Part shown: positions 2,396 through 49,009 of the stretch, piece by piece | Position numbering within the stretch: position 1 is the first letter of the stretch | Layout of the letters: each line of letters opens with the position of its first letter | Source of the DNA: a virus | Strand: one strand, 5' to 3' | IMG/VR virus record: IMGVR_UViG_3300029825_000007 | Coordinates: 1,374-65,373 of that record | DNA length: 64,000 nucleotides | Notes under the pieces: generated by a model | What the model saw: the letters and a program-made list of their open reading frames with translations, nothing else | The model's database searches: none | What the model was told of the DNA's origin: nothing | Made by a program: the position numbers and the translations under genes

Positions 2396-3391
2396 TCAGG
2401 CTATTGCTCTGTTGTAATTATACTTTACGCCATCTTGATCTATCGACACATAAATCTGTGTAGTACGCAAATCTGCGTGTCCTAACAGTGTAGAAACGTA
2501 TTGTATTGGCACACCTTTACGAACTAGGTTTGTGGCAAAAGTCCGTCTAAACCTGTGTGGATGAGCCTTGTTTACATTTGCACGTTTACCAATATTTCTG
2601 ACTGCCGCTTCAATCCCCGGTTTTTCAAGCCTGTTATATGGGGCTTTCCTGCTCACGAATAAAGCGTCATTATCATCTGTTCTGGTTTTAAGATATTGTT
2701 TTAAATATTCGCAACAAACATCTGACATATAAAATGTCCTTTCCTTGTTTCCCTTTCCAACAACGATTGATTCTTTAGTGGTGAAATCTATATCATCTAT
2801 ATTGAGTGATGCCACCTCTGACACTCGTAAACCTGTGGCAGATAAAAACTCAATCAATGCCCGATCTCTCTTGTTTGTACAGGCATTCCGTATTTTAAGC
2901 ATATCAATCGCTGTGAATGGTTTCTTTTGCACATCTGGAACCTTAATATGTTTCACAGCCAGTGCCGGGTTAATACGGATAAATGATTCCTCATACATCC
3001 ATCCAAAGAAAGATGATATAATTCTACGCTTATTATCCAGTGTCTTGTTGCATATCTTCCTCTCTTCCTGATACATGGCAAGATACATACGTATGTCATA
3101 TGTATTTACCTCATTAAAGGGCTTATCTATCGCTTGCACAAACTGCGATAATTCCAGTGAGTATGCGGCGATCGTATTTTCTGACTTGCCCTCTAGCCGC
3201 TTTGTGGCAATAAACTTTTTAATTGTCCGAATATTCCGATCATCATAGGGTACTAGCTCTGTAGTCTTTTCCCTGATCTCGTAATTTTCGAATTGTATAT
3301 ACAGTGTTCGTTCAACCTTTTCAACAACTTCCTTGTCTAATCCTGTCAGTGCCACCAATACGTTTTCTATGATTTCTGTTTTCACATCCAT
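2396..3391 (-). CDS. tyrosine site-specific recombinase (XerC/D- or Rci-like)
   Basis: 331 aa. It has a SAM-like N-domain and catalytic signatures: ATGLRVSE, HPHRFRRTFAT, LLGHADLRTTQIYV. Confidence 0.85.
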   Translation of the reverse strand: MDVKTEIIENVLVALTGLDKEVVEKVERTLYIQFENYEIREKTTELVPYDDRNIRTIKKFIATKRLEGKSENTIAAYSLELSQFVQAIDKPFNEVNTYDIRMYLAMYQEERKICNKTLDNKRRIISSFFGWMYEESFIRINPALAVKHIKVPDVQKKPFTAIDMLKIRNACTNKRDRALIEFLSATGLRVSEVASLNIDDIDFTTKESIVVGKGNKERTFYMSDVCCEYLKQYLKTRTDDNDALFVSRKAPYNRLEKPGIEAAVRNIGKRANVNKAHPHRFRRTFATNLVRKGVPIQYVSTLLGHADLRTTQIYVSIDQDGVKYNYNRAIA

Positions 3392-3420
3392 AGTAATACC
3401 TCCCTAAAGTTTATAGGAAT

Positions 3421-3496
3421 ATGATATCACTATGATATCACCATGTCAATACTTAAAATATATCACCTTGACATCACCTTTTCATCATGCTACACT
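3421..3496 (+). promoter_or_regulatory. promoter for the RHH gene plus direct-repeat operators, divergent from the recombinase
   Basis: TTGACA (3468-3473), a 17-nt spacer, then TACACT (3491-3496). ATGATATCAC occurs twice (3421-3430 and 3432-3441), and there are further TATCACC/CATCACC copies. Confidence 0.45.
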
Positions 3497-3517
3497 GTTT
3501 TTGGGGAGGTGAATATA

Positions 3518-3676
3518 ATGTCAATCGGTAAAAACAACACTAGGATGATTGTTACAATTCCTATCAAACTGAAAGAGCAACTTGACGCTCTCGCAGAAGA
3601 AGAAGGAAGGTCTACAAGTAATCTGGTAGTAAAAATAGTAAAAGAATACATTGAACAGAACCAGAGCCGGGAATGA
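3518..3676 (+). CDS. ribbon-helix-helix (CopG/Arc-type) DNA-binding protein
   Basis: GGGGAGG RBS 8 nt upstream of the ATG. The translation MSIGKNNTRMIVTIPIKLKEQLDALAEEEGRSTSNLVVKIVKEYIEQ has a typical beta-strand-helix-helix layout. Confidence 0.75.
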   Translation: MSIGKNNTRMIVTIPIKLKEQLDALAEEEGRSTSNLVVKIVKEYIEQNQSRE

Positions 3677-3696
3677 ATCCGGCTCTTATTTTTTTG
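3663..3696 (+). terminator. rho-independent terminator after the RHH gene
   Basis: AGAGCCGG-gaatgaat-CCGGCTCT followed by TATTTTTTT. Confidence 0.7.
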
Positions 3697-3716
3697 CATA
3701 AATTCAATCTCCTATC

Positions 3717-3726
3717 CGCCGATTTA
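3717..3726 (+). repeat. recombination core S1 (CGCCGATTTA; extended form CCGCCGATTTAGA)
   Basis: One of four copies of the same 10-nt core within 1.7 kb. It is read as Ala-Asp-Leu in the downstream open frame. Confidence 0.7.
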
Positions 3727-4014
3727 GATGTTAAAAGCAAATGGAATATACTGGATCAATATAATATTCCTGTCACCGAAGAAGAAAAAGTAAAACATAT
3801 AACTCCGTATCCGACAGGGAAAAGTCCAGAAGAATTTTTGGTTTCTTATGGCATTGCAAACGGAGGTCAATCTTATGGTGGATCAACAATCGTTTTACAA
3901 GTCAATGAATCCAAACCATGCCATGTTCCCGTATATGGGTCATATAATGAGAAAATAAGCGGAATCCTAACCGTATACAACGAATTTTTAGACGAATCTA
4001 AAAATATTGTGTGA
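3727..4014 (+). CDS. silent alternative C-terminal cassette B of the receptor-binding protein (no credible own start)
   Basis: The frame is open from S1 onward (..SADL|DVKSKWNILDQY...). The nominal ATG at 3673 lies inside the RHH terminator hairpin and has no RBS. Confidence 0.55.
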   Translation, partial: DVKSKWNILDQYNIPVTEEEKVKHITPYPTGKSPEEFLVSYGIANGGQSYGGSTIVLQVNESKPCHVPVYGSYNEKISGILTVYNEFLDESKNIV

Positions 4015-4120
4015 TCTAAATTTGGACAAGCAATAGAAACATACCGGTTAAAAATATACTATCGTTAAGACTAGATATTAAAATTATTTATTACAAATAA
4101 ATACTATATACAAAGTCACT

Positions 4121-4654
4121 TTATGAGCTTATAGGTTGTATTGTATAATCCATATTCACAGCGTTACCAACTATATAATAAACATAGCCATAGTAATTTG
4201 TGAACGCTATTTCGGCGCCTGTGTCAATACTGGTAATAGTTACATAATCACTAAGAGAAGCATGCGCACTCATGGGTACTTTGCCGGTTGAAACGGAAGG
4301 AATTAGTGACACAAACGCTGCCCCATGTGTTGCAAAAAATAAAAAGCTTATGACATTCCCACTAGAGTGACTATCTATGGGAACTGTTATTCTAAACTTT
4401 TTAGTGTTACCCATTGCAAACCCTTTAATAGATTGCCTGCCTAAATCGGCGTTTAAACCGTTAATTGCCCCCGGTAAGGTCTTATTGCTTGTATTAAGTG
4501 TGCTGTATGTTTTGCTTGTCAGTTTATTTAAGATCGCATCTGCAAGTTTATTATAATCAATCCGCTTTGTATCCTCTGAATCCTCTAGCAACATAATATC
4601 ACTGTCAGATGGATTGTCCTTTTTTGTCAATTCTGATAAATATGTATCTGCCAT
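4121..4654 (-). CDS. tail-fibre/receptor-binding protein, currently expressed form (constant N-terminus 4452-4654 plus cassette A 4121-4441)
   Basis: GAAAGGAAAAA RBS upstream of the ATG. The N-terminus MADTYLSELTKKDNPSDSDIMLLEDSEDTKRIDYNKLADAIL is fibre-like. The core site lies in frame at ..GLNADL|GRQ. Confidence 0.65.
   Translation of the reverse strand: MADTYLSELTKKDNPSDSDIMLLEDSEDTKRIDYNKLADAILNKLTSKTYSTLNTSNKTLPGAINGLNADLGRQSIKGFAMGNTKKFRITVPIDSHSSGNVISFLFFATHGAAFVSLIPSVSTGKVPMSAHASLSDYVTITSIDTGAEIAFTNYYGYVYYIVGNAVNMDYTIQPISS
4442..4451 (-). repeat. recombination core X (CGCCGATTTA on the minus strand) inside the expressed gene
   Basis: The plus strand reads TAAATCGGCG at 4442-4451. 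It is in inverted orientation relative to S1 and S2. Confidence 0.7.
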
Positions 4655-4728
4655 AATGTTATTTTTCCTTTCTAAAATGAATTATTTTTATATATTTTAT
4701 TTCTATATTATTGTCTCCGTTCTTTCAC

Positions 4729-4738
4729 CGCCGATTTA
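4729..4738 (+). repeat. recombination core S2 (CGCCGATTTA; extended form CCGCCGATTTAGA)
   Basis: It shares an identical 13-mer with S1 and is read as T-A-D-L in the open frame that continues into ORF 4769..5083. Confidence 0.7.
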
Positions 4739-5083
4739 GAGACCGTAGATTTTACGCCACAAATACAATTGCTAAAGGGGGTAAAATTAGCGACTTATTC
4801 TGAGGCATCTTGTACAGGTAACATGGTAATCCTACATCTTCACGTACAATTACCGACTGATTTCCCGATTAACGTAATAACAAATATAGCTACTCTACCA
4901 CCTGTTTTTTCTCCGAAATCTGCAAAGTTTCCGACAGTAGTGCAGTACGCGGATGAGTGGAGCATATCATCAGGTGGGTTATGCTACGGATATTTAGGTG
5001 GATTGGTGGGGTTACAAGTTTCAATACCCGAGAAAAATACCAAATGGTTAGATATTTCAACGACATATTTTCGTAAAGTTTAA
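4739..5083 (+). CDS. silent alternative C-terminal cassette C
   Basis: The frame is open from 4676 with no ATG or RBS (..FTADL|ETVDFTPQIQLLKGVKLATY...). It is on the opposite strand to the surrounding operon. Confidence 0.55.
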   Translation, partial: ETVDFTPQIQLLKGVKLATYSEASCTGNMVILHLHVQLPTDFPINVITNIATLPPVFSPKSAKFPTVVQYADEWSISSGGLCYGYLGGLVGLQVSIPEKNTKWLDISTTYFRKV

Positions 5084-5101
5084 AACTTAAGGCCTAGCTC
5101 A

Positions 5102-5425
5102 TTATAATCGTATAATCGTGTAATCAAAAAAGCTTGATGCAACTATGGTAACTTTGCTCCAGTTATTGCCATTAAAAGTAAAAGTGATATCATCATAGTC
5201 CGGATTAGATGTGTCAAACGTTACTATTTTATCACCAAATAATGTGTTAACATACATGTTTCTGGGGCCAGCACGTAAAGAGTAATTTACTACACCTGTG
5301 CTTACGCCAAAGTTACCATTGAAACTAGCCATATATAAGAATACATCAGTCTTGATTACACTTTTTGCAATTCTAATCGTAATAGAACGATATGATTCGG
5401 AACTTATTGAAAAAATCTTTTTCGA
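5102..5425 (-). CDS. alternative C-terminal cassette D (possibly also translated from a TTG overlapping the upstream stop)
   Basis: It begins ..IIADL|SKKIFSISS with the same core in frame, and is about 108 aa like the other cassettes. Confidence 0.5.
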   Translation of the reverse strand, partial: SKKIFSISSESYRSITIRIAKSVIKTDVFLYMASFNGNFGVSTGVVNYSLRAGPRNMYVNTLFGDKIVTFDTSNPDYDDITFTFNGNNWSKVTIVASSFFDYTIIRL

Positions 5426-5435
5426 TAAATCGGCG
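5426..5435 (-). repeat. recombination core S3 (CGCCGATTTA on the minus strand)
   Basis: The plus strand reads TAAATCGGCG at 5426-5435, 5 nt downstream of the stop of the 977-aa tail protein. Confidence 0.65.
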
Positions 5436-5439
5436 ATAA

Positions 5440-8373
5440 TCAATCTGTTTTCCCAATTAGTAAGTATTTTCCCTTCTTTGTCATTAATTTCTTTTTATCC
5501 TTTTTGGTAACAAGATACATAAGTGTTCTTGTGCCAAACTGGCCGATATATGTTGCACCGCCCAATCCGGAATCGTCATTTTTCACGGTTATACTATATC
5601 CTTGCCCTGCATATCCGTTAGATGTTTCTGATTTTCTATACCATGAAAACCATGTAAATGGATAACTCTTTGTAACCTCTTCCCCCGCCTTATATACATG
5701 TGCTGTCAACGTTGTTGTTCCATTTCCATTATCTGCATAGGTGACGTTGTACATCAGTATCTTGTCCGATACGCCGTGCAATTGATTCTGTGTGTCTGTG
5801 ATATCTGTCTTAATGCCGTCTACACTTGTCTGTATTGTAGTTACGTGCTGATTAGTTTCAGCAACAGCATTCTGTACACCTTTGATATCTTCTGCTAAGC
5901 CTTCTGCATCCGTCAAAACTACAAGATTCTGGCTGTCCAGTACATTCTGACCACCACTAGCATAGAGCGTAACTTTAATGGATTTTACATCTTTGCCCTG
6001 TGGTGTATAAACTTTCGTTGCTTCATCTTTAGAGGATAAATAGGTCTGTGTAAAGGTTTCTCCGTTACTGCTTTCTTCTACCTTAAATCTCCCGGAATAT
6101 GCTTGTACCGAATTGCCATCATTATATTGACCTGTGAGCGTTATATTTGCCGGAATAAGCGTTCCATTTTGCTTTCGGACAATCGCTAAAGTGGATGCCT
6201 TTAAACTGTAGGAAACGCCTGTACGCCCATCCAGAGCCTTACTAATACTGAATCGTTTGACAAGCCTTGTTTTCTCATCATCTGGATTAGCACTGTAAGA
6301 TGCTTCAATGTCAACATAGCCGTCATTTACGGTTAAATTAGACACTTGATAAGTATGTGTTGCGTTGCTCCATACACCTGTCAATCCTGTGGATGCAGTA
6401 ACTTTATAAGTTGCATTGTCAGATACATCTAAATCTCCGAGATACACATACATGGTGGTTCTACAATTGGTAAAATCACCACCGCTGCCATCTGCATTTG
6501 TGTGTACAACATGGCTGTCATTACTGAGAACCGCCGATATACTATCCAGTGATGAGATGCCGTTAATTGCTTCAATCGCCTGATCTGCTGTGTTCTGTGC
6601 TGCTTTAACGCTATTTGACATCTGTGAAAACACCATATCAAGTGATTGCTTTTTATCATCAAAGTAGATTAGGTTTGATTTTATGGTAGTATCACCGTTG
6701 TTGATCTCTGTGACAACACTGTTGATATCTAGTTTACTTCCGGCTATGTTTGCGTTGTCTGCAACCATGCTGTCCTTGATAATAGGGTCTTTAATGGCAT
6801 CCGCTGTCAGTCCTAGAGCATTCCACATGATCTTGCCATTAGCATCTGCAACGTAATAATTAAATTCTCCATTTGCATCTTGTCCGGCTTGCATACGGAT
6901 ATTACCGTCTTTATCTTTCCACTGCTGTGTATTACCGGATATTTGTACCCCACCGTCTTGAGAACCAATCATGATTTGGTCTGTGTATATCCGGCCGGAA
7001 AGTAACTCTCTCACATTGGCTATATCTGCAAGTACAGAACGGATAACCGCTGTGTCAATGACCGCATTTTGTGATGTCAAGTGTATATTCTGAATATCTC
7101 CTATTCCGGCATTCCCGGATAACAGAGATTTGATATTTGCTGTGTCTGCATCTAAGATACCAATATCAGCTTTGGCGGCATCCAAATCTGTTACTGTTAA
7201 TTCTTTGAATTTTCCATAATCTACATCCAGATTTTGTATATGTGCGTCTACTGCATTTAAATTCTTAATTGTCGCAAACGTAATATTCGCTGTCTCAACG
7301 TCTAATTTATTTGCAATAGCATGGTCTATCAATGCAAGTTTGATATTCCAACGGTCCTGTGCTTGTACGTTAGGACCCTTAAAACCTGTTTCTTGTTCGG
7401 ATTCAGATTTTCCGACCGCTTGTATTGTTGTTTTGATACCACCGTCATAATCTTGTGTCAGCATCATAACTGGCACTTTAAAACTTTTCCCTTTGCGGTC
7501 TTTCACTGTAATGATATCCCAAGGGTCTATACGTGGGTCACCGAGGAACCCAACTTGTCCCGGCATGTAAGAATAGTTTTTAAGGTTATTCCATACACCA
7601 TTGAGCATTGACTGTGTCATAAATGGATTGGAGAAACTTATCTCCCTGATTCCACTTCCAACACTGATTGAGATATCCTCTCCTTGCTCGTCTTTGCCTG
7701 TATAACACGTTATTTTTTGTAATTGGAACAAGTAATCATTATGCTTAAAAGAATCGTAGTAGCGGTTATCAGCGACTGTGTATTCGCTATCTGTGTAGGT
7801 CTTAATCTCAACTTGTCCTGATCTATTACAAATAGCAAATCCGCCATACATTTGTGATATATATGACAGTACTTCTCTGCACGTATATCCAACTGGTTTT
7901 TTCATGCTGATAGATGTCAAGCCGGATGTTATAACCTGAACATTTGTAATCGTGCTGATTGCATTTAAAATAGCGACCGTATTTGTTGTATCCGGCAAAC
8001 TCAAAAAACATGGTTTTTCCATTCTCATCATACGGTCATAAGCAGTCACCCTTGAAAACTCTTCATCAGCTTGTGGCTTTTCACATGTAAAGAATCCCAT
8101 TGGGATATATTGCATACTGTCATTGACTTCAATACCGATCTTTAATTGTATTTCGTGCCCCTCAAGCAACACATCTGTTGCAATACTCAAGTCTATATAT
8201 TGTGATACCGCTGAACCAATAGAAAAATCAGATTCACTGTTCGAGCCGCCATTAATTGTAATACTCTTGATGCCATCTGTGATATCAGTCTTTCCATCAA
8301 CAGTTATCAGAGCACGGAACATTCTAGTGTCTTGCTGTAGAACCTCTTCAATATCTTTATTTACTTGATACAT
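5440..8373 (-). CDS. tail-tip / tail-associated large structural protein (Tal-like, prophage-tail family)
   Basis: 977 aa, lying downstream of the tape measure and small tail proteins. The N-terminus (MYQVNKDIEEVLQQDTRMFRALITVDG...) is typical of siphovirus minor structural/tail-tip proteins. Confidence 0.7.
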   Translation of the reverse strand: MYQVNKDIEEVLQQDTRMFRALITVDGKTDITDGIKSITINGGSNSESDFSIGSAVSQYIDLSIATDVLLEGHEIQLKIGIEVNDSMQYIPMGFFTCEKPQADEEFSRVTAYDRMMRMEKPCFLSLPDTTNTVAILNAISTITNVQVITSGLTSISMKKPVGYTCREVLSYISQMYGGFAICNRSGQVEIKTYTDSEYTVADNRYYDSFKHNDYLFQLQKITCYTGKDEQGEDISISVGSGIREISFSNPFMTQSMLNGVWNNLKNYSYMPGQVGFLGDPRIDPWDIITVKDRKGKSFKVPVMMLTQDYDGGIKTTIQAVGKSESEQETGFKGPNVQAQDRWNIKLALIDHAIANKLDVETANITFATIKNLNAVDAHIQNLDVDYGKFKELTVTDLDAAKADIGILDADTANIKSLLSGNAGIGDIQNIHLTSQNAVIDTAVIRSVLADIANVRELLSGRIYTDQIMIGSQDGGVQISGNTQQWKDKDGNIRMQAGQDANGEFNYYVADANGKIMWNALGLTADAIKDPIIKDSMVADNANIAGSKLDINSVVTEINNGDTTIKSNLIYFDDKKQSLDMVFSQMSNSVKAAQNTADQAIEAINGISSLDSISAVLSNDSHVVHTNADGSGGDFTNCRTTMYVYLGDLDVSDNATYKVTASTGLTGVWSNATHTYQVSNLTVNDGYVDIEASYSANPDDEKTRLVKRFSISKALDGRTGVSYSLKASTLAIVRKQNGTLIPANITLTGQYNDGNSVQAYSGRFKVEESSNGETFTQTYLSSKDEATKVYTPQGKDVKSIKVTLYASGGQNVLDSQNLVVLTDAEGLAEDIKGVQNAVAETNQHVTTIQTSVDGIKTDITDTQNQLHGVSDKILMYNVTYADNGNGTTTLTAHVYKAGEEVTKSYPFTWFSWYRKSETSNGYAGQGYSITVKNDDSGLGGATYIGQFGTRTLMYLVTKKDKKKLMTKKGKYLLIGKTD

Positions 8374-9448: not shown

Positions 9449-12400
9449 TTAAAATTCAAAATTAAAAGGGAATGGCAACTTCCCAGATGATTTTACACGT
9501 TTTGTAACTTCTTCAATAATAAAATCTGTAATCTGCTTATTACCAATCTGTATATTGACTACTGGTGCTTGATTGTTGTTATTATCTGAATGAGCATTGC
9601 TAAATACTTTATCCATTCCGTCAACAACTGCATTTTTAATAGCATCTGCAATAACGGCATTGTTGGCTACTGCATTTTTATTTCCGACTTTACCAACCAT
9701 TTCTGGATTTCCAAACTCATTCATTCCCCATATTTCACCAGTTGGGAAACCACCTTTTTTATACCAGTCAATTCCAAACTTCGGTGTAGAAAACTCAATA
9801 CCACCAATTGAATGTTGTGTTGATGACATATTAATGTGCGGTAATGGAATATGGAAATTTGAGAATCCATCTGCAAAGTTTTTAATTGCATTTCTTCCTA
9901 TTTTCCATAACCCTCCGAGTTTATCACTGATTTTACCCGGCAAACTAGTAAATTCCTTTGCGATATTCGAAACAGCAGTTCCGGCATCGCGTTTCATACC
10001 TGCCCAATCACCGGAAAGGATTTGTCCTATGACACCCCAATCACCACGTGTGTCATTCTCAGTTTTGTTCCATGCTTTTTTGACCGTATCTGCAACTCCG
10101 CCGAACTTTTCATTGGCTTTTGTTTTTAACCCAGACCATGTGTCATTTACTTGTTGACTTACGGAATCCCATGTACTTTTAGTATCTTTTTTTGTTTCTC
10201 CCCACCAGTTTGATGCTGAATCATGGATGTTCTCAAATGTTTCAGAACCCCATTTTTTTAGATTTCCCCATGCGCCACTCATCTGATCGCATACAGAATC
10301 CCAAGTAGCCTTTGAATTTTTTTTGGTTTCATCCCACCAACCAGAAACGGATTCATATACTTTTTTAGCAGCATCTTTGATCTCATCCCAATGAGTGATA
10401 ATCAATCCAACACCAATCGCAACACCGGCTATCAAAGCACCTGTAGGGCTAAAAACAACAGAACCGATAGAATCTAGACTGGAACTAACTTTAGCTACTG
10501 CTTCTGCAATAGCAGGTGACATATCCATTAATGGTCCCATAAATTTTGCAACTTCTGATGCAATGGTAAACCCTTTAAATAATGCTTTAATAGCAAGTAA
10601 TCCAGAACCAAGTGCTAGAATAACCTTTCCGTCTTTAGTGTCAAACAAGCCAGATATAACACCGCTAAATGCTGTCCAAATGATATCCAATAAAGTGCTT
10701 GCAATGCCTTTCCAGTCTATAGAACCAAGAAATTCACCGATATCTCTACCGATTTGTTTCCAGTCGGTATTCTGCACAACTTCATTAATCGTACCAAGCA
10801 AATTCATTGTAAGATCACTTAAAGATTTACCCAATCCAGCCCAGTCTGTGTTGTGAATGAAATAATTGATTCCGTTATAGAGATTTTTAGCAATATCATT
10901 CCAATGAACCGTATCGTTAAAGTTATTTAAAATATCCCTAAGCCCATTAAGCCCACCAGACAATACACGACCAATAGTAGTAAAATTAACTTTTTCAAAG
11001 ATACCATTGATTCCATCACCGAACTTCTTACCCATAAGAGCATAATTAAGTCCGGGGTCTTTTTCACCATTACCGTTGAAAAATCCGTCTAAGATATTCC
11101 AGATAATCATGAATTTGTTTCCAAGAAAGTTTCCGATATTCTCAAAGTTTACTTCGGTAAAAATTCCATTCACACCTGTTGCAAATTTAGCACCAAGATT
11201 CTTCCAGTTAATGCCCTCAATTAATAAATTAAGCGTATTGATTATCGTGTTAATTCCTGCGCCAACAGTTCTACCCATTAAGTCCCAATCAATGTTATCA
11301 ACAAGACTATTAAAGGTACGTGTAAACGCATTGCAGAAATACGTGATCTTTGGCCCGACATTATTCCAATTAATGGCATCATAAACTTTCTGCATTCCTT
11401 TATTGAACCCATCAGCTATGATTTTGCCTAGCCCCTCCCAGTCTTCACGTTTGATTGCATCACGCATTTTTTTAGCAAAAGCACTGATCTCTTTATCTAT
11501 CGGAACTGTAGTAAACATATCAGCAGGCGATACACCAGTGTATTTTGATGTTCCTGGTGTTTCTGTGTATGTAGTAGGGTCTTTTGTATTGTCATTTAAG
11601 ACATTTAATTCATCAAAGCCCATAATTGTGCGCTTTAACTCTTTGACAGCTTTATTCGCTTTTTTAGTGCCTTTAGTAGCTCTTGTACTTTGATCTTCAA
11701 GAACTTTACCGTAATCCTGATATACTTTCTTAGCTTGAACAGCGTATTTCTTTCCTGTAAGTGCTGCAAAGAATTGACCAACTGCATTTAAGGCTTTAGA
11801 GATCATTTCTATGAAGACACTTAAATATGGTGCAACTACATTAACAATAGGTGCGAACGCTACTGCAAATGCGTTTTTGAGCATTAAAAGAGCAGATATG
11901 ATACTTGATATGCTCTTGTTATATTCTCCGCTGTATTGAACTAGGTTTTTACTTCCCTCTGCTATTGCAGTTTTAATACTAGAAATAAGCTGAAACACAC
12001 TAGAATACAATACAGACATTCCGATCATATGGCCGATTGAAGTCTTCTTCCCTGCTTCTTTTTTGAATCCAAGTAATGATTTAAGAGCATTTCCAATTTC
12101 TCTTTGAACAGGCTTAAAAGCATTCCCAACTTTATTTCCAAACTTACCTATGGATGAATCCATTTTGCCGAATAGTTGTTTTCCGGCATTAGCAAATTTT
12201 GAAAATTTAGCCAGCTGTTCTTTTGCTTGTTTCGCTGAATTTCCTTCTGCTTGTAAACCTTTTTGTGATTCCTGTGCAGACTTATTTAACTCTTTATTAT
12301 TTGTACTTACTTTGGCTTTTTCACGTGCTAAATCTTGCATTTCTTTAGCAGTCATACTAGCCGCCTTACCTTCACCAGATAGGGCTTGATTAGATATTTT

Positions 12401-13228
12401 TGCTAACTCTTCGAGATACTTTTTCTGCTCTTTTTGAGCAAGTAACATCTCTTGCATTTGCTCATAAGCATCATCAAAATCATTATCACCGAATGACAGC
12501 CCCTGATCTGATAAGGATTTTAGTTCTGATTTTAGGCTTGACACATTGACTTCAAAGTCCTGTGTGTCTGATATAGTACCTTTAAATTCACCTGATAGAT
12601 CGTTAAGTGATTGTGTCATTGACACAATTCCGCTATCATCTACTTTTGGCTCTATATCCGGAAAATCAAAATTATAATCGTTAGGGTCAGGCTCTTCAAA
12701 CTTTATAGGAATTGGTTCATCTGTGAATCCTTTTTCATTCAAGAGTTTCATTTTACCTGAATCTTCCCAAAAGTTTTTAGGACGATTGGCCGATTGGATA
12801 GCTTGCAATTCAAGTAGTTTTTTCTTGTATGAATCTAATTCGTTTGTAGCCCTTACGATATCATAGGAAAGACTTTTAAACTCTTGTGAATCCTTATTTA
12901 TACCGAATGTCTCTTTTTTATCTTTCCGAGCATTCAAAGTTTTTAAACGATTCTCAAGTTTTCCTATTTCTATCTCAACGTCTTTGATGTTGTTCGTATC
13001 AACATTGATTTTACCTATGTCTTTGATGCTTTTCATAAAGTCTTGATATGCGACTTTGGCTTTCTTAACCTTTCCAGTACCAAAGTCTATATCTTGCTTT
13101 GACGCACTAGTAAGAACGGTACGAACATCTTTTAAAGCATTTTTTAGATCATCTAATTGAGATATAGCTTTTTTTGATTCTGTTTCAACTAAAATCTCAA
13201 GAGAATCTATCTGGCCGTTATCAGCCAT
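9449..13228 (-). CDS. tail tape measure protein
   Basis: About 1259 aa. It has a coiled-coil N-terminal third, a hydrophobic glycine/alanine-rich centre and repeated W..ETKK motifs. AAGGAGGG RBS upstream of the ATG at 13228 (MADNGQIDSLE). Confidence 0.85.
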   Translation of the reverse strand: MADNGQIDSLEILVETESKKAISQLDDLKNALKDVRTVLTSASKQDIDFGTGKVKKAKVAYQDFMKSIKDIGKINVDTNNIKDVEIEIGKLENRLKTLNARKDKKETFGINKDSQEFKSLSYDIVRATNELDSYKKKLLELQAIQSANRPKNFWEDSGKMKLLNEKGFTDEPIPIKFEEPDPNDYNFDFPDIEPKVDDSGIVSMTQSLNDLSGEFKGTISDTQDFEVNVSSLKSELKSLSDQGLSFGDNDFDDAYEQMQEMLLAQKEQKKYLEELAKISNQALSGEGKAASMTAKEMQDLAREKAKVSTNNKELNKSAQESQKGLQAEGNSAKQAKEQLAKFSKFANAGKQLFGKMDSSIGKFGNKVGNAFKPVQREIGNALKSLLGFKKEAGKKTSIGHMIGMSVLYSSVFQLISSIKTAIAEGSKNLVQYSGEYNKSISSIISALLMLKNAFAVAFAPIVNVVAPYLSVFIEMISKALNAVGQFFAALTGKKYAVQAKKVYQDYGKVLEDQSTRATKGTKKANKAVKELKRTIMGFDELNVLNDNTKDPTTYTETPGTSKYTGVSPADMFTTVPIDKEISAFAKKMRDAIKREDWEGLGKIIADGFNKGMQKVYDAINWNNVGPKITYFCNAFTRTFNSLVDNIDWDLMGRTVGAGINTIINTLNLLIEGINWKNLGAKFATGVNGIFTEVNFENIGNFLGNKFMIIWNILDGFFNGNGEKDPGLNYALMGKKFGDGINGIFEKVNFTTIGRVLSGGLNGLRDILNNFNDTVHWNDIAKNLYNGINYFIHNTDWAGLGKSLSDLTMNLLGTINEVVQNTDWKQIGRDIGEFLGSIDWKGIASTLLDIIWTAFSGVISGLFDTKDGKVILALGSGLLAIKALFKGFTIASEVAKFMGPLMDMSPAIAEAVAKVSSSLDSIGSVVFSPTGALIAGVAIGVGLIITHWDEIKDAAKKVYESVSGWWDETKKNSKATWDSVCDQMSGAWGNLKKWGSETFENIHDSASNWWGETKKDTKSTWDSVSQQVNDTWSGLKTKANEKFGGVADTVKKAWNKTENDTRGDWGVIGQILSGDWAGMKRDAGTAVSNIAKEFTSLPGKISDKLGGLWKIGRNAIKNFADGFSNFHIPLPHINMSSTQHSIGGIEFSTPKFGIDWYKKGGFPTGEIWGMNEFGNPEMVGKVGNKNAVANNAVIADAIKNAVVDGMDKVFSNAHSDNNNNQAPVVNIQIGNKQITDFIIEEVTKRVKSSGKLPFPFNFEF

Positions 13229-13244
13229 ATGTGTGTCCCTCCTT

Positions 13245-13571
13245 TTACTTTTCGGTGCGACCAAAGTTTGCTTGCATAACCATTAATTTACTCAAGAACA
13301 ACTGTCTTTCTTTTTCCTTTTGCTCTTCTGGAATATTCTCTGGTTTCGTTTCATTTTTGTTATAAGACACTGGTTGATTCGGATACTTTGTTTTCCTGTC
13401 AAACATAGAGCCAAGAACCAACATCATATATGTGCCGATATTCCATGCCAAAAAATCAAGATCTTTATCTTTTTGTTCTCTTTTCTTTTCACCATATTTA
13501 AAATACCTTGACAGCTTTTTAGGTGTGGATTTCCAAAATATATCCATTGGAATCTCGTACTTCACTGCCAT
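13245..13571 (-). CDS. tail assembly chaperone, downstream (T-like) frame
   Basis: It lies between the G-like ORF and the tape measure. Its frame stays open at -1 through the end of the upstream ORF. Confidence 0.45.
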   Translation of the reverse strand: MAVKYEIPMDIFWKSTPKKLSRYFKYGEKKREQKDKDLDFLAWNIGTYMMLVLGSMFDRKTKYPNQPVSYNKNETKPENIPEEQKEKERQLFLSKLMVMQANFGRTEK

Positions 13572-33800: not shown

Positions 33801-33945
33801 AATGCCTCCTACAGATATTAAATTTATTTTTTATTCGTAAGATAATTATAGCATAATTTACAGGAAAGGGAAATGGGAGGACAAAATAGAAGGTTGATGT
33901 ATTGCTCAACAAATGGTACGATTGAAAGTAAGGAGGTTAGATGAA

Positions 33946-35211
33946 ATGCCAAAAAAACCAGATATGTCACTTATCGGCAAGAAATATAACATGCTGACAG
34001 TGCTAGAGTTGTCTGATAGACTAAACACTAGCGGAAATCGTATGTACAAGTGCCGTTGCGATTGTGGAAATATCCAGTATGCCACAAAGTGGCAGTTGAT
34101 AAATGGTTATCTGCAAAGTTGCGGATGTATAAAAAAACGACCAAAAAAAGATATTACCAATCAAAAATTCGGAAAACTTACAGCCTTATATCCTGTTGGA
34201 CCGAGCGTTTCAAGTGGCACCCTGTGGCACTGCCGCTGTGACTGTGGTAATGAAGTTGATAAGCCCACAAGCGTATTGGTTTCTGGTGGCGTGAAATCCT
34301 GCGGATGCCTAAGAAAAACACACAACCGCTCAAATTCGTCTGGAACTATAGGCGTAACATTTTATAGTAACAAATGGCGCGCCCATATAACGGTCGATAG
34401 AAAACAATATAATCTGGGAGCATTTTCGGAAAAAGAAGATGCCATAGCGATAAGAAAAGAGGCGGAAAAAATTGATCCTTCTGATTTTGAGGATTGGTAT
34501 AAAAAAATAGATAAAATTTCAAAAAAACAAACTGAAAAGGAAGCCCATATTTCTTGCACGCCCAAAGGTAAAACCATTCGAGAAGGAAACACCTACGGAA
34601 ATATAAAGGTTATAAGCTTATACAGTTATAACCCCAAAACGCACTATTATAAATATAATTGTAAATGTAAAAACTGCGGTTATACTTTTATAGATAGCGC
34701 TCAACGAATTTCTATGCATGCAAGGAATAATAGTTGCCCCGAATGCTTCAAAAGGCAAAAGGTGGCAGAAAGGAATGAAGATGCAAAAAAGTATATTGGC
34801 ATGCGTTACGGTGAATTAGAAGTTGTTGGTTATGCTGGTTTAAAATGTGCATCAAAAAATTTGAGATATGCAATCCCATACATGATATGTAAATGTCATG
34901 AGTGCGGAGACACCTCGGAAATACCGCTTGCAAAGCTAAAAAGCGGACAAACAAGCAAATGTGTGCACTGTGTAAAAAGAGACACATCTGATCACAAAGG
35001 TGTGAGCCTTGATAAAAAATCACATAAATGGAGGGCATATGTAACTTTTCAGAGAAAGCAATATAATTTAGGATTCTACGATAATATAGACGATGCTCTT
35101 TCATCCAGAAGAAAAGGGGATGAAGAAATGTTTGAAAGTTTCGTTGGGTGGTATAAGGAAAACTATCCCACACAATGGGAACAACTGCAAAAGGGGAGGA
35201 AAAATCAATGA
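33946..35211 (+). CDS. zinc-ribbon repeat protein with two AP2-type DNA-binding domains
   Basis: AAGGAGG RBS. It has four C.C.CG....C/SCGC modules and two AP2-like segments (GVTFYSNKWRAHITVDRKQYNLGAFSEKEDAIAIRKEAE and GVSLDKKSHKWRAYVTFQRKQYNLGFYDNIDDALSSRRKGD). Confidence 0.6.
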   Translation: MPKKPDMSLIGKKYNMLTVLELSDRLNTSGNRMYKCRCDCGNIQYATKWQLINGYLQSCGCIKKRPKKDITNQKFGKLTALYPVGPSVSSGTLWHCRCDCGNEVDKPTSVLVSGGVKSCGCLRKTHNRSNSSGTIGVTFYSNKWRAHITVDRKQYNLGAFSEKEDAIAIRKEAEKIDPSDFEDWYKKIDKISKKQTEKEAHISCTPKGKTIREGNTYGNIKVISLYSYNPKTHYYKYNCKCKNCGYTFIDSAQRISMHARNNSCPECFKRQKVAERNEDAKKYIGMRYGELEVVGYAGLKCASKNLRYAIPYMICKCHECGDTSEIPLAKLKSGQTSKCVHCVKRDTSDHKGVSLDKKSHKWRAYVTFQRKQYNLGFYDNIDDALSSRRKGDEEMFESFVGWYKENYPTQWEQLQKGRKNQ

Positions 35212-35605: not shown

Positions 35606-35983
35606 ATGAAATATGAATTATTTTCAAGATTATATAGAGACTGTAAACTGTACAGCAAGCCGACAGGGAAAAATAAAGAGCTGTATATCCATGAAAGGGG
35701 ATATCAAGACTGGATGGATGGGTATAGTCCAGAAAGCATCATAAACACTCTAGAATCAATTTGGTCGCTTTACTGGATAGATATGAGCGATATTAGAAAA
35801 GGTCTGGGATTGACACAATATGAAATGTCTCAGAGGTACTATACATCTAAAAGAACCGTAGAAAGTTGGGAAGCATCCGGGAAAGGTAAAAGAAACATAA
35901 CAGATTCACAAAAAATGCTGATTGCCTATTCAATTTTTGAATCTGAAAGGGATGGAAAGAATGGAAACACTGAAAACACCTAA
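35606..35983 (+). CDS. XRE-like HTH protein
   Basis: It contains GLTQYEMSQRYYTSKRTVESWEAS, an HTH segment. Confidence 0.5.
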   Translation: MKYELFSRLYRDCKLYSKPTGKNKELYIHERGYQDWMDGYSPESIINTLESIWSLYWIDMSDIRKGLGLTQYEMSQRYYTSKRTVESWEASGKGKRNITDSQKMLIAYSIFESERDGKNGNTENT

Positions 35984-36725
35984 GGGAAGACATATAAGAG
36001 AAGGAAACATATATAACAATGTCAGGGTCGTAAGCTTATATAGTTATGACCCAAAAAACAGATACTACAAATATAAATGCGAATGTCTAAATTGTGGTAC
36101 TACTTTTATATCCGGATCCCAAACAATTACAAATTATTCAAAAAACAATATTTGCCCTGAATGTCTTAAAAAGGAAAATGAAATAAAAAGAAAAAAAGAA
36201 TCAGAAAAACATATTGGTGAAAGATACGGATATCTTGAAATTATCGGATATGCAGGATTAAAAAAACTCGATCAAAAACGTTCGGTCATTACTCCATATA
36301 TGATATGCAAGTGTCATAAGTGTGGAAGTACTACAGATATACCTCTTACTAAGCTTGTAAATGGATATGCAAATGAATGTGCAAACTGTAGAAAAAATTA
36401 CCTAGAAAAGGGATGGAAGGCAAATGAAGATTATCACAAAGGTGGTTCTTATATCGGAAGTATTGAAAGCAGAAAGCTAAATAAAAATAACGCATCCGGA
36501 CATAACGGCGTTTCATGGAATAAGAAGCAAAAAAATTGGCGAGCATATATCGTATTTAAAAGAAAGCAATATCATTTAGGGACCTATGAAAAACTAGAAG
36601 ATGCTGTAAAAGCAAGAAAGGAAGGTGAAAAAGAGATATACGGGAGTTTTTTAGCATGGTATAAAGAAACATATCCTGAGTATTGGAAAAGGTTTGAAAG
36701 GAATAAAAAGAAGAAAAATGAATGA
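35961..36725 (+). CDS. zinc-ribbon/AP2-domain protein, paralogue of the C-terminal half of 33946..35211
   Basis: By eye it is about half identical over KGRHIREGNIYNNVRVVSLYSYDPKNRYYKYKCECLNCG.... AP2 segment: GVSWNKKQKNWRAYIVFKRKQYHLGTYEKLEDAVKARKEGE. Confidence 0.6.
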   Translation: METLKTPKGRHIREGNIYNNVRVVSLYSYDPKNRYYKYKCECLNCGTTFISGSQTITNYSKNNICPECLKKENEIKRKKESEKHIGERYGYLEIIGYAGLKKLDQKRSVITPYMICKCHKCGSTTDIPLTKLVNGYANECANCRKNYLEKGWKANEDYHKGGSYIGSIESRKLNKNNASGHNGVSWNKKQKNWRAYIVFKRKQYHLGTYEKLEDAVKARKEGEKEIYGSFLAWYKETYPEYWKRFERNKKKKNE

Positions 36726-36989: not shown

Positions 36990-37170
36990 TAACCATTCCT
37001 ATTTGATACCCCACGTGATACCCTGACGATACCACATGTCTGCAAACCCTTGATATATAAGGTTTTTTGAAAGCTGATGACGAGAATTGAACTCGTACAT
37101 ACAACTCTATTTTTCCAGTAAATTCAAGGCTTTCAAGCTCTTTTGTTTGATACCCTTTGATACCCCAGGT
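36990..37170. promoter_or_regulatory. attP-like region: arm-type repeats plus a tRNA 3'-end fragment
   Basis: There are five copies of (T)GATACC(C) at 37003-37036 and 37148-37170. On the minus strand, 37073-37096 reads ACGAG-TTCAATT-CTCGT-CATCAGC, which is a T arm plus acceptor 3' strand with no 5' half. Confidence 0.55.
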
Positions 37171-37171
37171 A

Positions 37172-38386
37172 TCATTTTATCATAAAATCAGGTATGTTAC
37201 TTACGATATCTGCTCTTTCTAACTCAGATCTTCGATTCCTATGATAATGTTCTTCACTGGTTCCGATATCAGTATGACCTAGCAATCCGATCACCATACG
37301 GTTATCAATGTGATTATCCATTAAGATAGTCCCATATGTTTTTCTGATTTTATGAGGGGATTTAGGGACAATGTTAAGTTTTTTACAGAGCCTTGAAAGC
37401 CTTCTCCTAACAGAATATGATTTAATTCTATCTCCATCACGGTTTGTAAAAATAAACTCTCCAAAAGGATTAATATGCTGCACCATTTTAGAAATCCATC
37501 TATAGTCTTTAGGTATAGCAATGTCCCTGATTCCGGCTTCTGTTTTCGGAAAGTCTTTAACCTCAAAGTGTGTGTTGCCAGAACCATCATTATATCTGGT
37601 CTCTGTTCTCTGCACCTTTACAGATATACCGTTGAAATCTTCATGTTTCAATGCCACTGCTTCCCCTATTCTCATCCCGGTAACAAACATTAATAAAAGG
37701 CATAGATTCTTTTCATCAATGTTATTTTCGAGATATTCAAGCATCAATGGCATTTCTTTTTCGTCAAACACTTCTTCTCTATCATCCTTTATAGTTTTAT
37801 GGAAGTCAGTTTCTGAAAGGTCAAGTTCATCAAAAATATCCTCGATTCTGAAATCTATCAGTTTCCGCTTTTTTGCTCTTTTGAATATTCCTTTTGTAAT
37901 TGTCTTAAGATTAGAAAAGGCTTTTGCGGAAAGCTGATGTTTTGGTATCTGCTCCTCAAGAAAATCTGTTATTTCTTCCGGATGTATAGCCTTTATACGG
38001 GATTTACCCAGTTCACTATAGAAACGGTCAAACATCTGTATATAACGGCTGTGTGAGGACTGAGAGATCTTCTCGAGGGAAAGTCTTCGATCATTCCATT
38101 CACTGAAAACTTCCTGAATGGTTGGATTCTCTTCTTGCTGTTTCCAATAATCCACAAGAACATCTTCTAATGCTTGTTTTGACTTCCGCTTCCGTGGAGT
38201 TCTGCCCGTTTCTGTTGGTATATAAGTGTGCCAATTATTGTCTTTACCATGCCATATCTTATAAGGATGCTTTTCTAGTAATTCCTGTCTATTTTTCATT
38301 TTTATTTTTTTTTGCACGTATGACAGATCTATCATACCATTGTCAACGGCATATTTCAATAATTCACTATTATTCATTTTTGACAT
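37172..38386 (-). CDS. int: tyrosine integrase
   Basis: 404 aa. It has a SAM-like domain and catalytic motifs: GMRIGEAVAL, HKIRKTYGTIL, LLGHTDIGTSEEHYHR. Confidence 0.85.
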   Translation of the reverse strand: MSKMNNSELLKYAVDNGMIDLSYVQKKIKMKNRQELLEKHPYKIWHGKDNNWHTYIPTETGRTPRKRKSKQALEDVLVDYWKQQEENPTIQEVFSEWNDRRLSLEKISQSSHSRYIQMFDRFYSELGKSRIKAIHPEEITDFLEEQIPKHQLSAKAFSNLKTITKGIFKRAKKRKLIDFRIEDIFDELDLSETDFHKTIKDDREEVFDEKEMPLMLEYLENNIDEKNLCLLLMFVTGMRIGEAVALKHEDFNGISVKVQRTETRYNDGSGNTHFEVKDFPKTEAGIRDIAIPKDYRWISKMVQHINPFGEFIFTNRDGDRIKSYSVRRRLSRLCKKLNIVPKSPHKIRKTYGTILMDNHIDNRMVIGLLGHTDIGTSEEHYHRNRRSELERADIVSNIPDFMIK

Positions 38387-47428: not shown

Positions 47429-48262
47429 CTATACCCCGGTACCCGTATAGCCCGTTGGGTTTACCGGCATCACACCTGGCATATCTGTAAATGAAATCTG
47501 ATCATCTCTATAATTCAGCATTTCTTCCTTTGCCCTGCGGTAAAAATCTTTCGATATCTCAAACCCATACCCATTTCTTTTAGTTTCTTGACACGCTCTA
47601 AGCGTTGAACCGCTACCTGCGCATGGGTCTATCACAACGTCTCCCTCATCTGTAAATATTTCTATAAGCCTTTTCAATACATTTACTGGTTTTTGTGCTG
47701 GATGAATTTTGGGATATTCTTTTGTGCTGTCTCTCTTCCACTCAAACCAATTGAATACCATTTTCCCATTATTCCTAAACTTTGGAAGTTTGTTCCTGTA
47801 AAGAAGCAATGCGTATTCAGTAGCACCGCATACCCTCATGTTCGCTTTCAGCACCTGAGGACTATAATTTTTACAGAAGATCAGTGGAATGTTATGTTTA
47901 AATCCATATTTTTCGGCGTATTTAATAACCGTCTGTATCTGCTCGAAACTACAAAATACTATCATGCACGGAGCATCAGAAGACTTTCCTCTCCCGTTGC
48001 TCTTCTCCGGTTCCTTTTTCAGCAGCCGATTGCAAAAATGGAAGTATTCCGCAATGTTAAAATTAAAATCTGTGTTAAATGCCGCCTTTTTAGCAAGCTT
48101 GCTTTCCCCGTTTTTATTGTCCCCGCCTATGTACCACATGGGATTGGAACCATAAAAGTTATTGCCTATGTTGTACGGGATATCTGCGATTACAAGCTGT
48201 GCTTTTGGTATCCCATACCTTTTATAATTCTGGAAATTGTCATTAATTAATTCTGTTTTCAT
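47429..48262 (-). CDS. DNA methyltransferase (N6-adenine/N4-cytosine, beta-class order)
   Basis: Motif IV-like (IADIPYN) lies near the N-terminus and motif I (VIDPCAGSGST) near the C-terminus. Confidence 0.7.
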   Translation of the reverse strand: MKTELINDNFQNYKRYGIPKAQLVIADIPYNIGNNFYGSNPMWYIGGDNKNGESKLAKKAAFNTDFNFNIAEYFHFCNRLLKKEPEKSNGRGKSSDAPCMIVFCSFEQIQTVIKYAEKYGFKHNIPLIFCKNYSPQVLKANMRVCGATEYALLLYRNKLPKFRNNGKMVFNWFEWKRDSTKEYPKIHPAQKPVNVLKRLIEIFTDEGDVVIDPCAGSGSTLRACQETKRNGYGFEISKDFYRRAKEEMLNYRDDQISFTDMPGVMPVNPTGYTGTGV

Positions 48263-48322
48263 ATTTTTTTAGAAGCCCGGTATACCCTTACCTCTGCAGA
48301 AGGCTGGCTCCTTTCTATTTTG

Positions 48323-49009
48323 CTATTCTGTGTATGCAAACATTTCTTCCTGTGTGTATCCGCTTCCTGCATCATCCACGAAATCAAATAAATTCATTTG
48401 TGATGAATATTCAGAAAGTCTTTTGCTTGCCAATTCGTAATATTGTTTATCAAATTCAAACCCGACATAATCAAGTCCGTTTTTTCTGCACGCTATGAGG
48501 CTGCTTGCACTGCCTACATGTGTATCCAGTATCTTGTCTCCCTTTCTTGCGTATTTATTTAGAATCCAGTCGTATAGGTCTACTGGTTTCTGTGTCGCAT
48601 GGATTCTGTCTCTTTCATTGCTCATGCCGACCCATTCTTTTGAGGTCCCGTCAAGATTAGTCCACGCATATTCACACATCGAAAAACTCATGGATTCCGA
48701 TATTTGAGGCTTCCTCCATATTAAAAAACATTTTGTTGGTGGAAGGTCAAAGTAATTTCCACCCCATATGATTGATTTTCTACTTACTCTGAATAATTCA
48801 TGGAAATACTTTTTATCTGGTGCTGAATTATCCCAATATGCTTTTGGGTAATCACTCTTTTTATCTCCACTTCTGCGCCCCATATTGTTGTTTATGTTAA
48901 TTCCATATGGAGGGTCTACAATGGCCAAATCAAAATATTTATCCGGGAATTGCTTCATCCCCTCCATGCAATCCATGTTGTAAAACCCAAAGTCTAACAT
49001 ATTTTCCAA
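48323..49009 (-). CDS. DNA methyltransferase (N6-adenine/N4-cytosine, beta-class order)
   Basis: Motif IV (IVDPPYG) lies at the N-terminus and motif I-like (ILDTHVGSASS) at the C-terminus. Confidence 0.7.
   Translation of the reverse strand: MENMLDFGFYNMDCMEGMKQFPDKYFDLAIVDPPYGININNNMGRRSGDKKSDYPKAYWDNSAPDKKYFHELFRVSRKSIIWGGNYFDLPPTKCFLIWRKPQISESMSFSMCEYAWTNLDGTSKEWVGMSNERDRIHATQKPVDLYDWILNKYARKGDKILDTHVGSASSLIACRKNGLDYVGFEFDKQYYELASKRLSEYSSQMNLFDFVDDAGSGYTQEEMFAYTE

Follow-up and report, generated by a model that had tools for sequence, protein, structure and literature searches.

A probable shufflon exchanging the C-terminal heads of a small tail receptor-binding protein in a virus with a probable Clostridia host

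The stretch of viral DNA analysed here (64,000 nucleotides (nt); IMG/VR record IMGVR_UViG_3300029825_000007, positions 1,374 to 65,373 of that record; hereafter the window) carries, between the gene of a 977-amino-acid (aa) tail protein and a tyrosine recombinase gene, a compact locus that is probably a shufflon providing a small tail receptor-binding protein with different C-terminal heads. The locus is organized around a 10-bp core, CGCCGATTTA, of which four perfect copies (c1 to c4, Table 1) are present in the window where 0.05 would be expected by chance, and none of 100 shuffled sequences reached four copies. As described in the initial annotation of this DNA, the strands of the copies alternate strictly (+, -, +, -) within 1.7 kb, and all four are read as Ala-Asp-Leu (ADL) at the start of an open segment. 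The codons are GCC-GAT-TTA, and the frames that they open have 98-117 codons. The sequences flanking the four copies are unrelated on both sides. The longer form proposed earlier for the core holds in part: its 13 bp, CCGCCGATTTAGA, are common to the two + strand copies only, 10 bp being common to all four. The first base of c2 is T and not C in four sister contigs, the invariant part thus being GCCGATTTA. The one-sided conservation proposed by analogy with the sfx sites of plasmid R64 was not recovered, the sites consisting of a 9-10 bp core with no conserved arm. When one mismatch was allowed, a single extra site appeared, at 6532, and it is unrelated. The locus therefore shows at least three copies of a short site in mixed orientation within a few kb, which is one of the marks by which a shufflon is recognized; a constant 5' part with alternative in-frame 3' cassettes and a dedicated recombinase gene are found as well, as detailed below.

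On the minus strand the order is: the 977-aa gene, c4, cassette D (forward) and cassette C (reversed), c3, the ribosome-binding site (RBS) and constant N-terminal exon, c2, cassette A (forward) and cassette B (reversed), c1, a ribbon-helix-helix (RHH) gene (reversed) and the recombinase gene (forward), beyond which lie the gene of a 438-aa tail-associated protein and then holin-like genes. An ATG preceded by a purine-rich RBS is found only at the c2 copy, where the exon and cassette A form one open reading frame (ORF) of 177 aa (4121-4654). The exon was previously presented as the only segment joined to a start; this is right for the exon itself, which measures 68 aa, but cassette D has an in-frame TTG at 5443 overlapping the TGA of the 977-aa gene (GAT-TGA), so that a 113-aa ORF is called there. 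The sole ATG of cassette B, at 3673, lies as had been noticed in the loop of the hairpin that ends the RHH gene. The presence of an SPP1-type portal and of a tape-measure gene (9449-13264, 1271 aa), with no sheath-sized gene, makes a siphovirus-like tail a reasonable assignment.

Table 1. Coordinates of the locus features and of the second tyrosine recombinase in the window
Feature	Position	Strand	Remarks
Tyrosine recombinase	2396-3391	-	331 aa, Xer-like, putative invertase
Divergent control region	3392-3517	.	Promoter-like sites for recombinase and RHH genes
RHH protein	3518-3676	+	52 aa, ribbon-helix-helix (CopG/Arc-like), divergent from recombinase gene
Intrinsic-terminator-like hairpin and T-run	3663-3686	+	Ends RHH gene; contains ATG 3673
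Core c1	3717-3726	+	Outer edge of invertible region, adjoining RHH terminator
Cassette B	3727-4065	+	Open to TGA 4012-4014; homology runs on to TAA ~4063-4065
Cassette A	4121-4441	-	Head currently expressed; 177-aa protein starting 4654
Core c2	4442-4451	-	Expression joint: N-terminus / ADL / head
Constant N-terminal exon	4452-4654	-	68 aa, last residues GLN before ADL
Leader of N-terminal exon	4655-4728	-	74 nt, AAAGGA-type ribosome-binding site
Core c3	4729-4738	+	Upstream of the exon's leader; inverted relative to c2 and c4
Cassette C	4739-5083	+	114 codons after ADL; without in-frame start codon
Cassette D	5102-5425	-	107 codons after ADL; not joined to N-terminus in window
Core c4	5426-5435	-	Directly after TGA of 977-aa tail gene, whose stop codon it abuts; opens cassette D
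977-aa distal tail / host-range protein	5440-8373	-	PHROG tail protein, host range and adsorption protein
Second tyrosine recombinase	37172-38386	-	404 aa, PF00589 at 4e-20

The 331-aa protein was correctly identified at the outset as a tyrosine recombinase. It matches PF00589 at 1e-41 over profile positions 15-169 of 172, has a SAM-like core-binding domain, and the motifs GLRVSE, GKGNKER, HRFRRT, LGH and QIY are visible in its translation, while domain searches (Pfam, PHROG, NCBIfam) returned tyrosine-recombinase families only and no serine resolvase-type domain. Between the two affinities first suggested for it, XerC/D or Rci, the first was retained: the protein scores 232.3 bits against the XerA-type NCBIfam model NF040815 (cut-off 220), and its nearest sequences in the PDB are archaeal XerA, then XerD. 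The Rci hypothesis was rejected, direct BLASTP comparison with R64 Rci (NC_005014, 102002-103156) giving no detectable similarity (E = 0.4). With the 404-aa integrase of the window it shares 26% identity over 69 residues only. Its closest annotated plasmid relatives are 37-44% identical, the recombinase of L. salivarius pR1 reaching 44% over 275 aa, and the two that were examined, both XerA-like, have hsdS genes of opposite orientations around them and belong to Type I restriction loci. Since this is the classical layout of hsdS phase variation, the nearest company of the enzyme is coding-cassette inversion and not integration. The gene had been placed inside the locus; it rather adjoins the invertible region, 326 nt from c1. 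It accompanies the locus in every related lineage, and in nearly all contigs its frame is intact and the set of catalytic motifs complete. The protein lacks an arm-binding domain, and its gene precedes a late-operon tail gene by 15 nt.

The main evidence comes from sister phages, whose comparison with the window shows that heads are exchanged exactly at the cores. Contigs L001-L006 have the same 977-aa gene, leader, N-terminal exon, RHH and recombinase genes as the window, and their homology to it stops and restarts exactly at cores (5431; 4735-4442; 3726). Two other cassettes, E (forward) and F (reversed), occupy the interval between c2 and c1, and their 158-aa protein, P0020, is identical to the window protein through ADL and is unrelated afterwards. 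The D-C bank is missing from these contigs, TTATCGGCGGTGAAAG standing in its place as the two outer flanks joined, and in L001 the leader follows the 977-aa gene directly; at L001 5915-5935 the flanks meet via CGGCG, which would fit a precise loss or gain of the bank between inverted cores. Contigs L138/L139 keep the four-site layout and match the window with 100% identity for the 2559 nt that lead to c4; an unrelated cassette, H (156 aa), follows. Their c2-c1 bank consists of D' (forward) and C'' (reversed), colinear with the c4-c3 bank of the window at 85% DNA identity, and the resulting 178-aa protein joins the window N-terminus (68/68) to D' at the ADL core. The fusion between the N-terminus and D that the initial annotation had predicted thus exists in a sibling, with 170 of 178 residues (95.5%) identical to the predicted N-D chimera. 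P0020 and the L138 protein, which carry other heads, have the exon sequence unchanged. Arrangement differences of the D-C module were seen only between diverged siblings (L138, in the other bank, at 85% DNA identity). In L043, an A-type cassette (91% identical) occupies a silent position beside a cassette G.

The same organization extends to more distant relatives. In the MENTN family, whose N-terminus is about 55-60% identical, whose recombinase is 38% identical and whose core is CTAAATAGTAAG, about 35 distinct heads occur behind a single near-identical N-terminus, and the head fused in L056 is found as an inverted silent cassette in L053 (94.8% identity). Cassette B shares 41-44% identity with the head expressed in P0047, and cassette E shares 29% with that of P0039. 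The N-terminal exon has 413 relatives among 50%-identity cluster representatives, most of them proteins of 150-280 aa matched at residues 1-70. Exon residues 6-30 (LSELTKKDNPSDSDIMLLEDSEDTK-like) are also repeated up to 21 times in some giant proteins (P0068, 2581 aa; P0080, 2828 aa; P0093; P0110), which suggests a repeat motif used elsewhere. In L051/L052, the recombinase gene lies between cassettes and may itself be invertible, and the large tail gene is separated from the N-terminal exon by an inserted IS110-family transposase gene (3275-4576).

To our reading, the sequence evolution of the cassettes is that of coding DNA. The C-type cassettes are silent in each genome seen (C in the window, C' and C'' in L138, F in L001) and all remain open over their full length; at this base composition an open frame of 117 codons would arise by chance with a probability of 3e-4. 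The ratio of non-synonymous to synonymous substitution (dN/dS), with a one-sided Fisher test for synonymous excess, was 0.58 for C vs C' (p 0.026), 0.25 for C vs C'' (p 1.6e-7), 0.54 for C' vs C'' (p 0.019) and 0.24 for D vs D' (p 0.002). Evolution of this type is unexpected of a sequence that is never translated, so that these cassettes must have had periods of expression. Among near-identical strains (window, L007, L037-L042), the expressed head A has four variable sites, all of which change the amino acid (G>R, H>Y, S>Y, P>L), compared with none in B, D and the N-terminal exon and one in C; this hints at diversifying selection on the exposed head.

Breadth-first enumeration of the inversions possible between inverted cores gave 16 configurations, and each of the heads A, B, C and D is joined to the N-terminus in four of them, in agreement with the inversion scheme first put forward for the locus. 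We propose that the exon (4654-4452) would be transcribed through read-through of the late tail operon and that the head would be whichever cassette follows c2, in frame after ...GLN-ADL. The recombinase would pair two inverted cores, with strand exchange within their 9-10 bp of identity, and the inverted unit would be a cassette bank, the N-terminal exon or the whole region: a flip between c2 and c1 would give N-B, a flip between c3 and c2 would turn the exon to face C, and further flips with c4 would bring in D. The cores would double as exchange points between co-infecting relatives, and such exchange would produce the to-the-base breakpoints among sister phages described above.

Switching would be kept rare by the RHH protein, which matches Pfam RHH_5 at 2e-12 and an Arc-like repressor in PHROG, and whose gene is kept beside that of the recombinase in L001, L037 and L138 and absent from the distant L051/L053 loci. 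The control region between the two genes has a recombinase promoter-like site, TTGACA-17-TATCAT, with 11 of 12 positions matched. Repeats at 3413-3484, namely two copies of (T)GATATCAC, ATATCACC and GACATCACC, overlap both promoter-like sites, and the half of the repeats nearer the recombinase is conserved in L001 and L138. These repeats are candidate RHH operators, and the RHH protein, bound to (T)GATATCAC and ATATCACC, probably represses the recombinase promoter.

Several searches bear on whether the locus switches at present. Megablast of the locus against 50,697 phage records gave no match; the 18-mer spanning the junction of N-terminus and core, searched exactly, had 0 matches in IMG/VR and 28 in JGI metagenome contigs, all unrelated chance ones; and a protein search with B, C and D concatenated returned nothing, probably because of a limit of the word index. 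Two MEGAHIT contigs (46 and 42 kb) terminate exactly at the last base of c1, and a metaSPAdes contig, L007 (ERZ724023 NODE_1181), is 99.98% identical to the window up to c1 and then continues into bacterial-type DNA. These contig ends and the change of partner point to population heterogeneity at c1, and the signs of heterogeneity are confined to this core.

Other observations weigh against a shufflon working today as described. No alternative configuration of the window's own cassettes was found in any assembly: eight contigs span the N-A junction and L140/L141 span B-c1-RHH, in at least eight samples, the contigs having been fetched via the D ORF or via the recombinase, the latter route being unbiased regarding the c2/c1 state. 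Since consensus assemblies show the majority state only and about a dozen contigs of the lineage are available, these data bound the switching rate and do not exclude switching. Twelve proteins predicted as inversion products in three lineages (N-B, N-C, N-D, MII-C, MII-A, MII-B, flank-A in two variants, N-F, N-C', N-C'' and N-H) were looked up exactly in a collection of 15 billion proteins and none was present, the L138 protein serving as a positive control found in the same collection. The search with cassette C matched silent ORFs only, and C-type heads were never seen fused to the N-terminus. Cassette B is probably truncated by a premature TGA: its similarity to the expressed head of P0047 extends about 15-17 codons past TGA 4012-4014, a stop found in every strain examined, so the four-way switch first proposed stands for the sites and for the joinability of all four heads and is doubtful for B. 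Readthrough or recoding of this TGA was considered and rejected, the 977-aa gene itself terminating on TGA. No consensus promoter was detected in the leader or the N-terminal segment and no terminator was found between the 977-aa gene and the exon, so that read-through probably drives expression of the exon, and expression may be lacking in the eight configurations where the exon faces backwards. The c2 variant of the four sister contigs and strain L041, in which the recombinase ORF has 272 aa (at a low coverage of 2.6x), count in the same direction. So does the silence of structural data on the heads: searches of the receptor-binding protein and eight heads against Pfam, PHROGs, NCBIfam and PDB profiles gave no match, and no link to any known receptor-binding fold came from the Pfam, PHROG and PDB sequence searches, while AlphaFold yielded unusable models for N-A (pLDDT 45, from a 43-sequence alignment) and for cassette C (pLDDT 34). 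In the proposed scheme the heads would bind receptors.

Most of these points would also be expected of a fossil or nearly frozen shufflon, in which the differences between sisters come from occasional co-infection exchange at cores and flanks; we regard this as unlikely, although it is the strongest of the alternatives. The single configuration in all contigs of the lineage, the absence of the predicted products from the protein database, the probable truncation of B, the c2 core variant, the shortened recombinase frame of L041 and the fact that sister loci differ by whole cassettes, and not by simple inversions of one set, are all in its favor. It agrees poorly with four cores that are perfect and invariant across strains (apart from the first base of c2), with a recombinase that is intact in nearly all contigs, with purifying selection on silent cassettes and with contigs terminating at c1. 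In L138, moreover, the break at c4 follows 2559 nt of complete identity, which marks a very recent event. We therefore prefer a shufflon in which inversion would continue in this lineage.

The c1 junction of L007 raises the question of whether the 331-aa protein could instead be an integrase, or a resolution or deletion enzyme, with c1 as its attachment site and the other cores as secondary sites or coincidental linker repeats. Beyond c1 (L007 6929-8214), this contig has a promoter and the gene of a membrane-anchored protein with a Pro/Thr linker and a metallo-beta-lactamase fold, absent from the window; the best relatives of this gene, up to 68% identical, come from the chromosomes of Lachnospiraceae and other Clostridia. 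The foreign flank reads TTAAA followed by the core, like the flank of c2, and, from its length, the other end of the contig was placed at about 37.1 kb, beside the 404-aa recombinase, which is probably the true integrase. The precise joining of c1 to bacterial-type DNA, the closeness of c1 to the RHH and recombinase genes, which recalls attP-xis-int modules, and two phages with a 35%-identical recombinase between tail and lysis genes would suit an integrase. These are the Terrisporobacter phage TPELB_ph1 (L054, PP197244.1, 17645-18640) and the C. perfringens phage phiCp-D (L055, MW478291.1, 21639-22616), the latter also encoding ParM. In both, the gene lies between the last tail gene and the holin/endolysin genes, and an inverted-repeat search around both recombinases gave nothing convincing and no cassette structure. 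An integrase nevertheless seems improbable to us. The genome has a separate integrase at 37172-38386, where L007's other end is placed, the 331-aa protein lacks an arm-binding domain and sits in the late operon beside a tail gene, and the four in-frame cores at the head joints and the N-D chimera would be left unexplained. The host junction is a single one, with no reciprocal, and would fit a recombinase-mediated deletion in a lysogen equally well. For L007 we prefer a lysogen that may have lost all the DNA from c1 to a look-alike site in the chromosome (TTAAA + core); the junction could also have arisen by integration or through recombination with some other element. Upstream of 80 homologues of the L007 beta-lactamase-fold gene the core was matched 4 times where about 9 were expected, which is no enrichment. 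Just 3' of the 404-aa integrase (about 37060-37110), a segment resembling by eye the T-arm and acceptor 3' end of a tRNA (reverse complement GTACGAGTTCAATTCTCGTCATCAGCT) is a candidate attP, and neither ARAGORN nor Rfam called a tRNA on this fragment near 37.1 kb.

Ordinary modular paralogy, with the repeats as a conserved domain-boundary linker, the opposite-strand segments as independent genes or non-coding DNA and no site-specific recombination, could draw on the in-frame TTG from which cassette D is called as a gene, on the ATG found four codons before ADL in the A-type copy of L043 (P0019) and on the general frequency of head swapping by homologous recombination in phage receptor-binding proteins, but it is highly improbable, because a three-residue linker needs no 10 identical nucleotides, wobble positions included, between unrelated flanks, and because it accounts neither for the strict alternation of the cores, nor for a cassette C with no start codon, nor for sister-phage homology breaking to the base at cores, nor for a recombinase with hsdS-locus relatives adjoining the locus in every lineage.

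A tyrosine-recombinase switch of this kind was initially thought to be unusual, which did not hold: Rin shufflons on phage receptor-binding proteins are already published, in prophages of Bifidobacterium breve and B. longum (Mavrich et al. 2018, PMC6109161) and of Eggerthella lenta (PMC8778435), as is a BV01-like phage shufflon, of unstated recombinase type (PMC13596623). The Rin system comprises an armless tyrosine invertase, a constant N-terminus of the receptor-binding protein, dissimilar C-terminal cassettes, an 11-bp site and a separate integrase (PMC6109161, PMC8778435). The window is alike in its armless phage-encoded tyrosine recombinase beside the locus, its constant N-terminal segment with several dissimilar C-terminal cassettes, the short asymmetric repeat (about 10-11 bp) before each cassette and the canonical integrase elsewhere in the genome, a likeness of layout. 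The sites differ, rix being TTCCCTAACCC (PMC6109161) and the window core (C)GCCGATTTA. The hosts differ as well, Actinobacteria for Rin and probably Clostridia for the window. In Rin the constant segment lies at one end and the recombinase at the other, whereas in the window the exon lies between two banks, with inverted cores on either side, and the locus includes an RHH gene, unlike Rin. For Rin, both prophage and virion sequences revealed variant orientations; for the window, the assemblies revealed none. Resemblance of the cassettes to the receptor-binding heads of lactococcal phage TP901-1 is a further mark of Rin; for the window heads the sequence searches were blank, as reported above, and the models of too low a confidence for a fold comparison.

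The R64/IncI shufflon (Rci, sfx, pilV) resembles the window locus in its multiple inversions, its constant N-terminus with alternative C-termini, its tyrosine-type recombinase and a site similarity limited to a short stretch. The sfx site has a 7-bp core plus a conserved 12-bp arm, whereas the window sites share 9-10 bp only, with both flanks unrelated; besides the lack of pairwise similarity between the recombinases noted above, the target in R64 is a pilus adhesin of a conjugative plasmid and in the window a phage tail protein. Gin-type invertases depend on an enhancer and on Fis. In the Mu Gin, P1 Cin, p15B Min and Enterobacter phage gin shufflon (PMC13418256) systems the logic is the same, tail-fibre C-termini being chosen by inversion so that host range varies, but these systems use serine recombinases, in contrast to the tyrosine recombinase of the window. 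The hsdS loci of L. salivarius pR1 and L. cremoris pJM2A, which hold the closest annotated relatives of the enzyme, likewise place a recombinase among oppositely oriented partial coding cassettes sharing a junction; their target is the specificity subunit of a restriction enzyme, of cellular or plasmid origin, and not a phage receptor-binding protein. That loci of this type invert is probable in view of how they are annotated and of published work on hsdS inversion (PMC9881135). Finally, according to a 2026 preprint, the tail-fibre shufflon of a BV01-like Phocaeicola phage has three cassettes and yields six isoforms via different stop positions (PMC13596623). It resembles the window system, with a Bacteroidota host and the motif TGGGAGAACT, and all its configurations are reported there in reads, whereas none was seen for the window, for which only assemblies were used.

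Given these precedents, the window brings no new principle, shufflons of this kind on phage receptor-binding proteins having been known since Rin (2018). What is new is the host phylum (probable), the exon placed between two banks, the RHH gene and the affinity of the recombinase to hsdS-locus enzymes; no description of this arrangement was found in the literature searched. The host is a probable member of the Clostridia, on the basis of the L007 flank, of the Clostridium and Terrisporobacter phage relatives of the recombinase and of a VanY/SH3 endolysin. A more detailed model can be put forward tentatively, and we hold it to be possible rather than probable: a two-bank shufflon with 16 states, in which the exon would be invertible between the banks under an hsdS-type Xer-like invertase damped by the RHH protein, and in which the cores would also trade heads among phages of Clostridia and occasionally recombine with chromosomal look-alikes. 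This model would include the movement of whole two-cassette modules between banks, and would cover at least 413 relatives of the N-terminus and dozens of heads.

If active, the locus would provide programmed host-range variation to a temperate phage whose host is probably a gut or fermenter member of the Clostridia, and the pool of interchangeable heads on one small adaptor would be relevant to predicting or engineering the host range of Bacillota phages. It would extend tyrosine-recombinase shufflons on receptor-binding proteins to a third phylum, beyond phages of Actinobacteria and of Bacteroidota, the recombinase type of the latter being unstated in the available part of its source, and would link phage shufflons to the recombinases of Type I restriction loci with inverted hsdS genes. 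The 9-10 bp site and the 331-aa recombinase form a candidate tool alongside Rci. In metagenome assemblies, such loci would be a source of contig breaks and of mis-called small ORFs. Elsewhere in the window, two AP2-domain proteins are encoded between the terminase and the integrase (33913-35211 and 35922-36725, +), and two adjacent N6/N4 DNA methylase genes are found in the replication region (47429-49009, -).

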